Shown here in pieces: positions 2,077 to 57,124 of a stretch of 64,000 nucleotides of DNA (position 1 is its first letter; each line of letters starts with the position of its first letter). Source of the DNA: an uncultured delta proteobacterium (lineage in GTDB: Bacteria; Desulfobacterota; Binatia; UBA9968); the NCBI GenBank assembly GCA_963840855.1, contig CAWJBB010000002.1:88837-152836 (forward strand), written 5' to 3'. The position numbers and the translations under genes are program-made. The notes beneath the pieces were generated by a model. That model did not search any database, was not told the DNA's origin, and saw only the letters and a list, made by a program, of their open reading frames with translations.

Positions 2077-3195
2077 ATGAAAGCGATTTCGAGAAATTTC
2101 ACTTTGGCCCTGGGGCTGTGGCTCACGGCTTTTGCTGGATATAGCGACGCTGCGAGTCCGGCGTTGCTTAAAGCCAAACAGGAGGCCGAGACGAAGGGAT
2201 ATGTTTTCGCGACGAGCCACGACCAGATCGTGGCCACAGCCAAAAAAGAGGGCAAGATGCGCGCCGTAAGCTTCCTGTCCGGGACGATGCTTGACGCGAT
2301 GGTTCGCGCCTTTAGGGCGAAATACCCGTTTCTCGACGTCCATGTGGAGGAGCAAGGAGGATCGGTTGAAGCGGCGCAACGCTTTCTCCTGGAGATCAAG
2401 GCCGGCATCGTAAAGGACTGGGATGCCAATCGCCTCTGGACCGAGTTATACGATGAGTACCTGCCGCACCAGAAGAAGTTCGACATTCTGGGCATGGCCC
2501 AGAACAAGGTGCTAAATATCCCTCCGATGATGGTCGATCCCGTTCACCGCCACGTCGTGGCGCTTAGCAGCAACCTCCATGTGCTGGCCTACAACAACAA
2601 GTTGATCCCTCCCGAAAAGGTCCCCGTAAAGTGGGAGGATCTCTTGCGGCCCGAGTTCAAAGGGAAGAAGTTCGCCTCGGATATTCGGCCCGTAGCGGTT
2701 GCGGCGCTGGTCCCTGCGTGGGGCCTTGAGAAGACCCTCGACTTTGCCAGGAAGATCGCAGCACAGCAGCCTTTCTGGGGAAGAGGCCATTCCATCGTGA
2801 TTTCTTCTGTTCAGGCCGGAGAGATCCCCATGTTTATGGGGACCAACTTCGGAGCCGTCAAGAGAGCGCAGTCAAAAGACCGCGCCAAGGTGCTCGGATA
2901 TAAGTTTTTGGAGCCGGTTGTGGGCAGGCTGCACCTCACCGACGGCGTATTGGCCGCGGCCAGAAATCCTTATGCCGCCCTTTTATGGCTGGAGTTTCAG
3001 GCATCGCCCGAAGGGCAAAAGTTACTGGATGAATACTGGCCTTTTGGCGCGTCCGTACTGTTGCCCGATTCGGTTCAAGCGCAAGAGACCAAAGGAAAGA
3101 CACTCTCCCTGCTCGATTGGAACCACTATACAAAGCTCGACGAATACACCTCGAAGGTTGCGGTGGCTTACGGCTTTCCAAAGGCCGAGCGTTAA
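2077..3195 (+). CDS. ABC-type extracellular solute-binding protein (Fe3+/thiamine/polyamine-like PBP2)
   Basis: GGGAGG RBS, signal peptide, AKKEG motif, AYNNKLIP..P.KWEDLL.PEFKG, ARNPYAALLWLEFQASPEGQ. Confidence 0.85.
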   Translation: MKAISRNFTLALGLWLTAFAGYSDAASPALLKAKQEAETKGYVFATSHDQIVATAKKEGKMRAVSFLSGTMLDAMVRAFRAKYPFLDVHVEEQGGSVEAAQRFLLEIKAGIVKDWDANRLWTELYDEYLPHQKKFDILGMAQNKVLNIPPMMVDPVHRHVVALSSNLHVLAYNNKLIPPEKVPVKWEDLLRPEFKGKKFASDIRPVAVAALVPAWGLEKTLDFARKIAAQQPFWGRGHSIVISSVQAGEIPMFMGTNFGAVKRAQSKDRAKVLGYKFLEPVVGRLHLTDGVLAAARNPYAALLWLEFQASPEGQKLLDEYWPFGASVLLPDSVQAQETKGKTLSLLDWNHYTKLDEYTSKVAVAYGFPKAER

Positions 3196-3219
3196 GTCGG
3201 GAGCAGATTTGACATTTAT

Positions 3220-3357
3220 TCTCCTTCGCCGAATACCTCGCAGCTTGCTGCGAGGATGAAGGTGAGGAGAACCCTCCGTAGCCTTGGCGAAGGAGGGTTG
3301 AAGGGCTTCGAAGAATTTCGCAAAGATACCTCGGAGCTTTGCTCCGAGGAGCTTTAT
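3220..3357 (+). mobile_element. Miniature non-autonomous IS200/IS605-type element (PATE-like), copy A
   Basis: Left: TTAT (3216-3219), 12 nt, AATA, hairpin CCTCGCAG-cttg-CTGCGAGG. Right: GATA, hairpin CCTCGGAGC-ttt-GCTCCGAGG, AGCT, TTAT. Same architecture as 47314-47464. Confidence 0.7.
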
Positions 3358-3443: not shown

Positions 3444-3923
3444 ATGGTACAGCCGAACAAGATAGCAGGTATCACCGTTGCACGGCAGCAACAAATAGAC
3501 GTGTCGTCAGACCCGAGCAGAGGCAAGTGGAGCAGCCCGTTCCGTTTGCGTGCTGGAAACCTCGCCGTTGGCCTAATGAGAGTCAACAAGGACGGCGGCG
3601 AGAACAATCTCCACGCGCATCCTGATGTAGAGTCGATCTGGATTGTGCTGAAGGGAAGGGCGAGATTTTATGGTATGAACGATGTCCTGGTCGCCGAACT
3701 TGGGCCCGGCGAAGGTGTCGCCATACCCAAAGGAGTTCCTTACTGGTTCGATAACAAAGAGGAAGAGCCACTGGAGGTTTACCACATCACCAGCCGAGAC
3801 CCTTCGATCAAGGATGTCCACCGTGTAAACTTCGCTCCATACACCGTGGCGCAAGAGACCCGCGGACCGAGGCCGGGGCGCGAGGCTACGGAGCAGGAGA
3901 AAGAGGCGGCGGCTAAGTTATGA
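3444..3923 (+). CDS. Cupin domain protein
   Basis: AAGGAGG RBS; GGENNLHAHPDVESIWIVLKG and G.GVAIPKGVPYWF cupin motifs. Confidence 0.85.
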   Translation: MVQPNKIAGITVARQQQIDVSSDPSRGKWSSPFRLRAGNLAVGLMRVNKDGGENNLHAHPDVESIWIVLKGRARFYGMNDVLVAELGPGEGVAIPKGVPYWFDNKEEEPLEVYHITSRDPSIKDVHRVNFAPYTVAQETRGPRPGREATEQEKEAAAKL

Positions 3924-8273: not shown

Positions 8274-8949
8274 CGAGTCGCCTGGCAACTACTCCCGCTT
8301 GATTCCACCGCGCTTGCTGTCTTGCCGGGGTCAGATTGCTACGACTTGCCTACCTTGCGACGCCGTTCGATCTCTCCAGTCTGCTGGGAATCCGATTTCC
8401 ATTGCCGCAATTATCTTCGCTCGTTAGGATCTTCGAAACCCCTCTGAGGTCGAGATTCCCAATTGGCGAGCGACCTCCGCGACCCCCGCCTGATGCTGTT
8501 CAAAGTTCAATGTTCAAAGTCCCGAGTCGGCCCTCCATCACATGGTTTATCCCTTTCCTGCTAGACGAGGCGGTGCTGTGATCGAGGAGCACCCTTCCAA
8601 TAAGGCAAGATCATAGTAGCCTATCGGTTCGCTTGGCCAACTCGGTTGCATTCGGGCCATGATGGCTGATGCAGCTTCGTCCGCCCCAAGTAGTGAGATC
8701 GATTTTGCCACGGTGGTAACGCCCCGACGACTTTGGCCGAGTTCCGCCGCTGTCGCCGCCCGGGTCAGAATTGAAAACGCTCTAGAATAGGGTCCGTTTG
8801 CGCCGCCGCTGCAGATTCTTTTGATAATCGAATCTTTTCCAATACCCGAAACGAGCCGGCGCGAAAGCGGATGCACGAAAATCGATCGAGCAACGGTCTG
8901 ATCCTGTGTATTGATCAGATCGACGTCTTACGTCCGTTCAACGAAAGAA

Positions 8950-15439: not shown

Positions 15440-15613
15440 TCATCAAACAGTACGCGCCAGCAGCCGGATGGGCGTGCGTTGCATGGTTGAGATCATGATC
15501 CGCTCGAACGCGGAATAATCTTCAGGCTTATGAAACAGTTCGCTTCGAGCGTTCGCGCGATTGAGCACGTGATAAACTATTTCGCCTGGTGCGATGCGTG
15601 CTCCTCGGGGCAT
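15440..15613 (-). pseudogene. N-terminal fragment of a RAYT (Y1_Tnp) transposase, frameshifted
   Basis: MPRGARIAPG/IVYHVLNRANARSELFHKPEDYSAFERIM...IRLLA/YCLM; breaks off before the HUH motif. Confidence 0.75.
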
Positions 15614-36314: not shown

Positions 36315-36700
36315 AGGGGATACCACAAAACGAACCCTATGGCCGCCGTTGCAGCCGGAATAAAGAGTTAGTGAGGGAGCAATTGATGGCTTAAAACTCT
36401 TCATGACCGATAGAGTACCGTAAGTCCATCGCAAAAAAATCGCATGCAGCGAATCGAACCTCTGTTGCTCGTAAAATTTTTTCACAGCTTCGGAGATTTA
36501 GAGGGATTTTCATCCGCTCAAAGCGACTTTGACGCGACACTCTACTATCACCTGTAACGATCTGCGGCGTTCGAACAAAGCTGCGCTCTTGCTGGCGGCC
36601 ATTTTCCGATCTAGTATGGCGGCGCTTCAGCGGGTCCGGCGCCGTCCTGCCGGCGCTGCCGTTCGAGGGAGTAAAATAGACATTTTATTATGGAGGAATA

Positions 36701-47237: not shown

Positions 47238-47313
47238 CGTTTTTCTAACGATTCTGAATCGCGACGATTGTGAAACGCCGATTGACAGCCATGCCGATTT
47301 TGCCCTATTTTAC

Positions 47314-47464
47314 CCTCCTTCGCAGAAAGCCACAGGTGTCAACCCGTGGATGAATGCGAGGTGGGTACCCTCCGTAGCCTTGGCGCAGGAGGGTACGCTT
47401 CGGAGGGTTCCGCCCTGCCAATCTTGTGGAGAGGTGCCACGGCCGTAAAGCCGTGGGGCTCCAC
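47314..47464 (+). mobile_element. Miniature non-autonomous IS200/IS605-type element (PATE-like), copy B
   Basis: TTAC (47310-47313), 12 nt, AAAG, imperfect hairpin. Right end: GGTG, hairpin CCACGGC-cgtaaa-GCCGTGG, GGCT, CCAC. Confidence 0.75.
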
Positions 47465-47487: not shown

Positions 47488-48528
47488 ATGAAAAGGACAT
47501 TTTTCTGCGTATCGATGCTGATCGGGTTTGCCTTTCTTGCTAGCCTTTCGCATGCTGCCTCCGATGAGTTTTTCAAAGGCAAATCAATCAGGTTTGTGGT
47601 GGGAAACACGGCGGGCGGAGCACAGGACGATTGGGCGCGCTTTCTGGCGCAGCATTTCGGTAGAAACATTCCCGGAACACCCGATATCATAGTGCAAAAC
47701 ATGGGGGGAGCTGGAGGAATAATCGCGGCGAACTATGTCTACAACGTCGCCAAGCCAGATGGGTTAACCCTCGGCTTCGTCAATCCGGCCATTTATATTG
47801 ATCAGCTAATTGGCGCCAAAGAAGTAAAGTTCGACTGGGCGAAGTTTTCTTGGATCGGATCACCGGAACAGATCGACCAGGTTTTGTTTATGCGCAGCGA
47901 TATGCCTTACAAGACTGTGGAGGCGCTGCGCACTGCGGCGGAGCCGCCACGGTGCGCGGCACTGGCGCGGGCCGGTCTTGGCTATTTTCTGCCAAAACTC
48001 CTTGAGGAAGGGCTCGGTGTCAAGCTCAACATGGTGCTTGGATATGGGGGCGGCGGCGAAATGAATCTGGCGATTGAAAAGGGCGAAGTGCACTGCCGCG
48101 CCGGGACAGTTTCGGCGTATGTCGGGCGGGAGCCCACTCGGACTTGGATCAAGAGCGGTTTTGTTCGCGCCTTGGTGCAAAGCGGCGAAAAACGCTACCC
48201 GAAATTGCCGGATGTTCCAACGATTTACGAGCTGATGGATGCCAACAAGACAGCCGATGAGACCAAGCGATTGGCGCGGGTGCTGCTTTCCCCCGGCGAC
48301 CTCGGCCGGCCCATTATTTCATCACCGGGGGTGCCCGCTGAGCGGATCAAGACTTTGCGGGAGGCGTTCACGAAGGCAATGAACGACCCAGAGTTAATAG
48401 CCGACGCTAACAAGCGAAAGTGGGATATGGACCCAACCAACGGCGACCGATTGGAAGCAACTGCCAAAGAAGTTATGGTTCAGCCCCGAGAAGTGATCGA
48501 AAAAGTGAAAAAAGTATTGGGGCAATGA
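47488..48528 (+). CDS. Bug/TctC substrate-binding protein
   Basis: FFKGKSI, IPGTP, QNMGGAGG, KPDGLT, LGYGGG. Confidence 0.9.
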   Translation: MKRTFFCVSMLIGFAFLASLSHAASDEFFKGKSIRFVVGNTAGGAQDDWARFLAQHFGRNIPGTPDIIVQNMGGAGGIIAANYVYNVAKPDGLTLGFVNPAIYIDQLIGAKEVKFDWAKFSWIGSPEQIDQVLFMRSDMPYKTVEALRTAAEPPRCAALARAGLGYFLPKLLEEGLGVKLNMVLGYGGGGEMNLAIEKGEVHCRAGTVSAYVGREPTRTWIKSGFVRALVQSGEKRYPKLPDVPTIYELMDANKTADETKRLARVLLSPGDLGRPIISSPGVPAERIKTLREAFTKAMNDPELIADANKRKWDMDPTNGDRLEATAKEVMVQPREVIEKVKKVLGQ

Positions 48529-56290: not shown

Positions 56291-57124
56291 ATGCCAAACG
56301 TAAAACTGCCCACCGGAGTCGATCTCTATTACGAAACCCACGGCCAAGGCGAGCCGCTCATCTTCGTGCCTTCTACGGCATACTCCGGTGAAGTTTGGAA
56401 ACCCTCGCAGATGCCGCTCGCGGGTTCGTTGAACATCATCTTTCACGACCCGCGGGGCTGCGGCCGATCGGTGGCCGAGCAAAGCGTCTACACCATCGAG
56501 CAGATGGCGCTGGATATCGTTGCGCTGATGGATCATTTGAAACTTCCATCAGCGCATTTCATCGGCCACTCGATGGGCGGGAGAATCGCCCTATCGCTGG
56601 CGGAAAACTTTCCTGGCCGAGTCAGGAGCTTGATCATGGCGGCCAGCGGCTCCGGGCCGGCAGCCCGGCCGGGTTCGGACTGCGTTACCGGATTGCCGCA
56701 CCGATTGGTGCTGGACATGGTAGAGATGGGCTTCGAGAAATACATCCATCACGAGACCGTGGAGTCCGACACGTTTTTTACCAAAGACTACCGCGCCACG
56801 CATCGCGCCGAAGTCGAGGCATTCTACAAGCTTGCCTGGGCGACCCACGCTAAATTACCGGAATTCATTCACCTCTGCATCGCACGCCACAACTGGGAAG
56901 GCACGCATCGCCTGGGCGACGTGAAAGCGCCGACGTTGGTTTTGATCGGCGAAGCCGACACCGTCGGCAGCAATCACATGGCGCAAGCGCAAGTGCTTAA
57001 GGAGCGCATCCGCGGCGCCGAGATGAAAGTGCTTAAGGGGCAGTCGCACGGATTTTTTTGGCAGGCGCCGGAAGAGACCAATTCAGTGATTCTCGATTGG
57101 GTGAAGAAGCATAGCGGAAAATAG
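56291..57124 (+). CDS. Alpha/beta fold hydrolase
   Basis: DPRGCGRS, GHSMGG, GEAD, SHGFF. Confidence 0.9.
   Translation: MPNVKLPTGVDLYYETHGQGEPLIFVPSTAYSGEVWKPSQMPLAGSLNIIFHDPRGCGRSVAEQSVYTIEQMALDIVALMDHLKLPSAHFIGHSMGGRIALSLAENFPGRVRSLIMAASGSGPAARPGSDCVTGLPHRLVLDMVEMGFEKYIHHETVESDTFFTKDYRATHRAEVEAFYKLAWATHAKLPEFIHLCIARHNWEGTHRLGDVKAPTLVLIGEADTVGSNHMAQAQVLKERIRGAEMKVLKGQSHGFFWQAPEETNSVILDWVKKHSGK

Follow-up and report, generated by a model that had tools for sequence, protein, structure and literature searches.

Short gene-less repeats of probable IS200/IS605 descent with covarying guide and cleavage tetramers in an uncultured deltaproteobacterium

Positions 3220-3357 of the window, i.e. the whole stretch of 64,000 nucleotides that was analysed, are very probably a non-autonomous, gene-less derivative of the IS200 group (IS200/IS605), an element of the PATE or MITE kind. 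The copy number of this element, its boundaries, empty sites and target motif, the complementarity and covariation of its guide and cleavage tetramers, and tnpA-bearing relatives with identical end modules were directly observed and carry this reading.

Results

Parts of the two window copies

The element at 3220-3357, copy A, is intergenic with a solute-binding-protein gene (end at 3195) on one side and a cupin gene (start at 3444) on the other. The original prediction had assigned a common layout of cleavage tetramers, guides and hairpins to copy A and to a sibling, copy B. Every motif and tetramer that it listed for either copy was found in the window sequence at its predicted position. Copy A had the following features:

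3216..3219, + strand: C_L, left cleavage and target tetramer TTAT, in flanking DNA outside the element; occurs once in the empty site of the congener G003
3220..3357, + strand: family A element, 138 nt; boundaries common to 41 near-full copies, absent from the orthologous site on G003:C20
3221-3358, + strand: possible alternative register of the element; a T follows both TTAT and TCAT and for this reason the family A boundary is ambiguous by one base
3220..3231, + strand: left-end spacer of 12 nt, TCTCCTTCGCCG, between C_L and G_L; conserved as YCTCCTTCGCMG in families A and B, complementary to internal segments
3232..3235, + strand: G_L, left guide AATA, the four bases 5' of the hairpin foot; pairs with TTAT by the IS608 rule
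3236..3255, + strand: IP_L, left subterminal hairpin CCTCGCAGC-TT-GCTGCGAGG with a perfect 9-bp stem and a TT loop; compensatory changes across families
3256-3260, + strand: ATGAA directly 3' of IP_L, AT being its first bases
3272..3297, + strand: central 26-nt hairpin module CCCTCC-GTAGCCTTGGCGA-AGGAGGG, conserved in families A and B, diverged in C
3325..3328, + strand: G_R, right guide GATA, assigned by sequence and pairing rule
3329..3349, + strand: IP_R, right subterminal hairpin with a 9-bp stem and a TTT loop, similar to IP_L and on the same strand; compensatory stem changes
3350-3353, + strand: AGCT, its AG being the putative triplet-forming bases by analogy with IS608 (rule from excerpts of PMC3201880)
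3354-3357, + strand: C_R, right cleavage tetramer TTAT; TCAT in most copies

The corresponding features of copy B, read from the window sequence, were:

47310..47313, + strand: left cleavage and target tetramer TTAC (flank), kept in the empty site on G002:C306
47314..47464, + strand: family B element, 151 nt; the syntenic site of G002 lacks precisely these bases
47314-47325, + strand: left spacer CCTCCTTCGCAG
47326-47329, + strand: G_L AAAG
47330-47349, + strand: IP_L hairpin
47350-47354, + strand: ATGAA
47433-47436, + strand: G_R GGTG
47437-47456, + strand: IP_R hairpin
47457-47460, + strand: GGCT
47461-47464, + strand: C_R CCAC

Thus the left end of both families consists of cleavage tetramer, 12 nt, guide and hairpin followed by AT, and the right end of guide, hairpin, RG-CT and cleavage tetramer. 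Copy B ends about 25 nt upstream of an ATG at 47489. It is not a lone sibling of copy A; it belongs to a separate family with two copies in the source genome and many in related genomes.

Copy number in the source genome

The source genome (G000) is a 7.1-Mb assembly of 93 contigs, 94% complete and 8% contaminated. It contained 41 near-full copies of family A at 88-99% identity plus several partial ones, a recurrence far beyond chance, and nhmmer returned 45 family A matches at E < 1e-30. An alignment with flanks showed sharp common ends, the similarity beginning with CTCC directly after ...ATT and ending with ...GAGCTTCATT. Terminal inverted repeats were absent from the aligned copies, which carry two similar hairpins on the same strand. 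Several copies had interior insertions of about 40 or 80 nt. Copies consisting of a left end only were rejected as full-length elements and are truncations. A head-to-tail dimer was found at G000:C65:24263-24587. Its second copy, with a ~40-nt insert of its own, began immediately behind the TTCATT of the first (junction ...TTCATT followed by CTCC...), which is expected if the right end can act as a target.

The copies were unevenly spread. Contigs with any copy numbered 23 of 93; eight copies lay on the 140-kb contig C65 and six within 65 kb of C40 (65-130 kb). Given the 8% contamination, the clustered copies may belong to just one of two genomes mixed in the assembly. A blastn search gave no plasmid matches to A or B. 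For the IS200/IS605 family one would expect a bias of the top strand towards the lagging-strand template; the orientation of copies showed no association with local GC skew (22/45, 25/43 and 19/38) in what is a weak comparison on these MAG contigs, which have no known origin and a weak skew. A smaller relative of the form TTAA-13 nt-AATT-CCCCGCAGCTTGCTGCGGGG-TAGT-TCAT-T was present at G000:C33:~8400-8490, C69:~56440-56500 and C32:~36490-36530, once with two hairpins (~90 nt) and once collapsed to one (~50 nt); its guide and target fit the pairing rule described below.

Empty sites and target motif

Empty sites were found for both window copies, as the original prediction had called for, with one site per family. 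The flanks of copy A were joined in G003 without the 138 nt (...GACATTTATTTGGAGTTGA...), the uninterrupted site reading ...ACATTTATTTGGAG..., and those of copy B were joined in G002 exactly after TTAC, i.e. ...TTTTAC followed by GCGGCACCCATGA..., without the 151-nt element. Thus insertion had occurred exactly 3' of TTAT(T) and TTAC, respectively, with no duplication. For two further copies no empty site was obtained, since there was no synteny in the congeners.

The left flank of the 39 parsed family A copies of the source genome was TTAT in 30, TGAT in five, TCAT in three and CTAT in one; base -5 was T in 33/39, and the base after the right end was T in 29/31. For family B 21 left ends were parsed, pooled over all sources, and 20 of them had TTAC, while the base after CCAC was variable. 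All five A copies with TGAT on the left had TCAT on the right. Because left and right tetramers differ (TGAT versus TCAT in A, TTAC versus CCAC in B), there is no target duplication; only the trivial 3-bp ATT overlap in family A would be compatible with one from sequence alone.

The IS200/IS605 family is known to select strongly for the base that follows the cut, with about 70% C after TTAC in IS608 and about 90% G after TTGAT in ISDra2 (excerpts of PMC5934647), so the T after family A ends is not odd. Pairing of this +1 base with guide position 3, as in ISDra2, was rejected because T faces T in family A.

Guide and cleavage tetramers covary

In the rule for IS608, cleavage base 1 pairs with guide base 2 and cleavage base 2 with guide base 1, and these two guide bases also enter triplets with the dinucleotide directly 3' of the hairpin (excerpts of PMC3201880 and PMC5934647). 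The original prediction had compared copies A and B by this rule; with the copies collected here, including a third family, C, identified in genomes G031 and G033, the pairs were as follows (guide/cleavage tetramer):

Family A: left AATA/TTAT; right GATA/TCAT; bases 3' of right hairpin AG
Family B: left AAAG or AAGG/TTAC; right GGTG/CCAC; bases 3' of right hairpin GG
Family C: left AATG/TTAC; right GAAG/TCAC; bases 3' of right hairpin AG
Locus L097 (single): right GGTA/CCAT
Locus L142 (single): right GGTA/CTAT
Locus L087 (single): left CAGA/TGAT
Loci L091 and L043 (single): left CATA/GGAT

Guides and cleavage tetramers agreed in the three families and in several single variants. At positions 2 and 4 of the right guide all four combinations of A and G occurred, each with matching cleavage bases. 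The fourth-position pair C4-G4, which the original prediction gave as part of the IS608 rule, is supported by the covariation observed here. Over all parsed copies the right pairs were GATA/TCAT in 38, GGTG/CCAC in 10 and GAAG/TCAC in three cases, and the left pairs AATA/TTAT in 40, AAAG or AAGG/TTAC in 19 and AATG/TTAC in three, in a tally in which about a dozen single rows are spurious, the anchors having matched by chance.

Among 15 representatives drawn from the three families, standard pairs made up 98.9% of the 89 cells of the six rule pairs. Controls gave 87.9 ± 1.8% upon shuffling (0/500 as high), a figure that is not a probability because the choice of representatives by end-motif anchors predetermines the cleavage side and because the sequences share ancestry; slid controls gave 43-74%. 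Compensatory changes on both sides were seen in four of the six rule pairs, and RNAalifold proposed the G_R/C_R pairs unprompted.

The bases 3' of the right hairpin tracked guide bases G2 and G1, with AG accompanying the guides GATA and GAAG and GG accompanying GGTG, GGTA and GGGG; one GATG with GG was the exception. AT directly followed all left hairpins in the alignment. The bases 3' of the hairpins are consequently those which an IS608-type triplet would be predicted to need.

Exceptions to the rule remained in single copies: GGTA/CCAC twice, GATG/CCAC once, GGTA/TCAC at the right end of L087, and GATA/TTAT in copy A itself. These look like decay of immobile copies. The original prediction had found three of the four window pairs in full accord with the rule and one G-T mismatch in GATA/TTAT, and this holds. 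The right TTAT is a minority form (4/41 aligned copies); since the family consensus is TCAT, which pairs fully, the mismatch in copy A is a derived C-to-T change. On the left, the TGAT and TCAT targets of family A mismatch G1 (9/39).

An alignment of the 15 representatives showed homology of the three families across the region between the two hairpins. Since matched tetramers and hairpin stems differ over homologous interiors, the target and end specificity of the three families has probably changed by compensatory substitutions. Variable boundaries, target duplications or missing covariation were not seen among the copies compared.

Copies of families B and C elsewhere

Most family C copies (L196-L200 and L202; G033 and G031) sit in a larger repeated context, sharing about 30 nt on the left (…GGGGTTTCCCCCGTGG…CCATTAC) and the same right flank (TCCACAGGGGGGAGAAGCGG…); only the flanks of L201 are unrelated. 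These copies may, with their shared flanks, be part of a composite repeat.

Family B copies occurred in differently labelled MAGs, namely Deltaproteobacteria (L088, L090, L141), Actinomycetota (L093, L153), Saccharibacteria (L129) and Elusimicrobia (L175). They were judged closely similar to copy B by eye, not by a computed identity, and reflect a 150-nt element that has crossed between phyla or, alternatively, short contigs that were binned wrongly.

Transposases and tnpA-bearing relatives

The source assembly encodes no classical TnpA: the ten PF01797 hits were without exception long proteins of the RAYT-like type or fragments thereof, three classical TnpAs used as tblastn queries gave no match, and the TnpB domain PF07282 had none. 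In other genomes, 8-kb loci surrounding the elements were searched by tblastn with Y1 or TnpA, and no hit adjoined any element. An in-genome classical TnpA is not required for a relic or a trans-mobilised element.

Same-layout IS200 elements with tnpA, which the original prediction had called for, do exist. Two were present in G018, the first reading TTAC-11 nt-AATG-hairpin ... AATG-hairpin-TGAT-TTAC and the second TCAC ... GAAG and AAAG ... TTAC. A third, in ten copies in G029, reads T-T/G-AA, CTTGT, AATT, hairpin ... GATA, hairpin, TTCT, TCAT, then T in 9/10. Metagenome contigs scanned with an alignment of G018- and G029-type TnpAs gave 80 loci, in which 20 hairpins fit the family A stem pattern. 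One of these loci, L283 (Ga0209170_1005037), is a 544-nt IS200 whose TnpA reaches 124 bits on NF033573, above the cut-off of 55. At its right end, GATA-CCCCGCAGCTTGCTGCGGGG-AGCT-TCAT-T, it is identical over 33 nt to the CCCC-hairpin subfamily of A, which comprises five G000 copies and the Nitrospira-labelled copies. The left hairpin of L283 has exactly the sequence found in A copies of Nitrospira-labelled MAGs. A TnpA of the L283 type is a candidate cognate transposase.

The pairing rule applied to the tnpA loci as well. The C_R that it predicts lay 2-6 nt after the hairpin in 33/45 loci versus 12.4 ± 2.5 with shuffled guides (maximum 20 in 1000), using post-hoc trimming of A-T pairs at the stem base; without trimming it was 22/46 versus 9.0 ± 2.3. 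The pair classes were GATA/TCAT (17), AATG/TTAC (4), CATA/TGAT (3), AATA/TTAT, AATA/TTTT, GATG/TCAC and AAAG/TTAC (2 each) and GAAA/TCAT (1).

The long Y1 proteins raise the question of another, less likely origin. The repeat could be of the REP, BIME or REPIN type, kept by the genome's RAYT-like Y1 proteins (domesticated TnpA_REP), and not derived from an IS200 transposon. All ten Y1_Tnp hits being of the long RAYT-like type agrees with this, as does an A copy that starts about 18 nt after the stop codon of a 226-aa RAYT-like Y1 gene (G000:C41:317455-318135; L035/L184). The product is closest to NF047646 with 67 bits, under the cut-off of 80. Several decayed Y1 fragments exist in the source genome, one of them at window ~15455-15595 (- strand), and two lie within about 1 kb of A copies. 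Yet the Y1 unit has conserved inverted repeats of its own, AAGGGGTCGGGAGTCTTTTC ... GAAAAGACTCCCGACCCCTT, found also in G002, G018 and G023 and unrelated to the element hairpins. The same spot in G002 reads ...TTTTAT, so the copy beside the Y1 gene simply landed on a target site. Gene and element do not co-occur among 41 relatives, which include the two unpublished genomes G009 and G015: G002 has the Y1 gene at 80% identity and no element, whereas G001 and G013 have many elements and no close Y1 homologue. Element-type hairpins outside copies were found at only three sites, none of them near a Y1 gene. Finally, the element differs from single REPs or inverted REPIN pairs in that its two hairpins point the same way and its cleavage motifs are distinct at the left and right ends. 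We consider the REP reading improbable, and the 226-aa Y1 protein was rejected as the cognate transposase on account of its own inverted repeats, the TTAT site and the lack of co-occurrence.

The conserved interior

The left spacer of the element is complementary to three internal segments. The first lies just after the left hairpin (columns 5-11 with 51-57 of alignment A3), where a T-A pair in families A and C is replaced by C-G in B, the two forms occurring in 7 and 7 of the 15 sequences. The others are the 3' half of the central hairpin and a downstream GGAGRRT segment, which covaries with the last two target bases. The resulting 7-nt pairing includes these two bases and reads ATTCTCC/GGAGAAT in A, ACCCTCC/GGAGGGT in B and ACTCTCC/GGAGAGT in C, an in-step change that was read off the alignments and carries no statistics.

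The central 26-nt hairpin has G.A mismatches and a CTTG loop. An 18-mer of this module was exactly present in at least 117 loci of other species. Among the matches listed, which come from dozens of species, the labels (L061-L177) were CPR groups, Verrucomicrobiota, Bacteroidota, Alphaproteobacteria, Planctomycetota, Omnitrophota and others, and the module usually stood alone as an insert, in many cases directly behind a tRNA gene or within another hairpin. In the source genome it occurred inside element copies only (42/42). Of 101 module windows extracted, 85 had no left anchor of the element, although by eye about nine of these 85 were still copies of the A or B type that had insertions or altered ends. 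The 85 windows showed a 5' flank preference of G-C-Y-T-G/A (T at -2 in 51, purine at -1 in 81, G at -5 in 52) and none on the 3' side. The module was rejected as an Ssn-related motif (SRM; SsnA GIY-YIG nucleases), with the degenerate SRM pattern from PMC11893778 matching 0/101 windows and neither window element.

A second palindromic module of about 40 nt, of the type CCGGCCTTCG...GGAGTAGG, was cleanly nested in a hairpin loop, on the left or on the right, of A copies from Nitrospira-labelled MAGs (L064, L091, L112, L134, L135, L162). A related ~40-nt module was seen within B interiors (L214, L215), which points to nested insertions.

Morero et al. proposed that a hairpin at +46 to +60 of IS608 gates the pairing of left end and target (excerpts of PMC5934647). 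One could speculate that the interior is more than filler, that the mini-transposons are mosaics with an independent, ultra-small and mobile ssDNA hairpin module found across phyla, and that their interior folds to gate left-end/target pairing, an idea which we hold only tentatively and regard as rather doubtful.

The interior bears on one further reading, a dispersed gene for a structured small RNA or a family of regulatory or terminator hairpins that spread by duplication instead of transposition. Such a family would fit the strong predicted fold of copy A (-38.8 kcal/mol as ssDNA, z = -6.9 versus 200 shuffles), the conservation of the interior across families and the intergenic location of copies. 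Against it, no Rfam 15 family reached its gathering score for A or B and nothing meaningful came up at E <= 10, the best score being 18 bits versus a gathering score of 63.5; the exact presence or absence at orthologous sites, the fixed target tetramer and the head-to-tail dimer argue for insertion; and the end modules are identical to those of tnpA-bearing IS. This reading is very improbable. A cut-and-paste MITE with terminal inverted repeats, a DDE transposase and a target duplication of up to 3 bp can be dismissed almost outright, since, although family A copies have ATT at either flank, terminal inverted repeats are absent, the B copies with TTAC on the left, CCAC on the right and variable bases thereafter have no duplication, and the base before ATT is T, G or C on the left versus C on the right.

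Discussion

We favor the view that the repeat is a gene-less derivative of the IS200 group. Its chemistry, single-stranded intermediate and mobilising TnpA would be those expected by homology with IS608 and ISDra2. A Y1 HUH transposase TnpA acting in trans would bind both subterminal hairpins on the single-stranded top strand, with G_L AATA and G_R GATA pairing with their cleavage tetramers, TTAT in the left flank and TCAT at the right tip. The element would be excised as a single-stranded circle and reinsert 3' of a new T-T/G-A-T site, usually one followed by T, without target duplication.

Meers et al. 2023 described that motif and DNA-guide mutations covary in ISGst1-5, with the motifs TTTAT, TTCAT and TTCAC, that a matched double mutation rescues excision, and that PATE-like gene-less elements exist, with nearly 50 orphan elements in one genome (excerpts of PMC10055086). 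Because covariation and PATE-like elements are thus already published, the present finding is not a new mechanism and leaves current views of the IS200/IS605 family as they were. The natural retargeting of a non-autonomous family that the original prediction had proposed is borne out by about 45 copies and by the compensatory changes; as a principle it is not new (excerpts of PMC10055086). What the families offer is a clean natural series of retargeted variants in one homologous scaffold, in which the triplet bases match too, and hence a ready substrate set for how DNA guides retarget TnpA enzymes of the IS200 group. The family also accounts for repeats that fragment assemblies and adjoin ribosome-binding sites in these uncultured bacteria.

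The ends resemble those of IS608 from Helicobacter pylori in having cleavage tetramer, spacer, guide and imperfect palindrome, in reverse order at the right end, and in the pairing C1-G2, C2-G1 and C4-G4. The left pair AAAG/TTAC of family B is the very pair of IS608. Unlike IS608, the elements have neither tnpA nor tnpB, and their hairpin sequences are unrelated. The left spacing of IS608 is longer than the 12-nt spacer of families A and B. The AT 3' of the left hairpin and the right purines matching G2 and G1 are features that excerpts on IS608 describe as well. The right spacing is shorter here, with 4 nt from hairpin to C_R as against a C_R 10 nt from the foot in IS608 (excerpts of PMC3201880), and at +1 family A prefers T whereas IS608 prefers C (excerpts of PMC5934647).

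The IS200 of G029 shares G_R GATA, C_R TCAT and the T at +1 (9/10 copies) with family A. In contrast to the mini-elements, L283 and the G029 IS200 encode a TnpA (141-149 aa) and have no mini-element interior. Their left ends differ, too, with the 5-nt spacer CTTGT and the guides GATT with TCAA and AATT with T-T/G-AA.

The term PATE (palindrome-associated transposable elements) was reportedly used by Dyall-Smith et al. in 2011 for haloarchaea. Like PATEs, the elements described here are short and protein-less with ends of the IS200/IS605 type; unlike the haloarchaeal ones, they are bacterial, measure 134-155 nt and have a conserved, structured interior.

Compared with the ISGst1-5 set of Geobacillus stearothermophilus, the present families differ in host lineage and end sequences and involve no TnpB or IscB and no omega-RNA. 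Both sets have in common that related IS200/IS605 elements occur together with minimal gene-less elements, whose orphans are presumed to be mobilised in trans (excerpts of PMC10055086).
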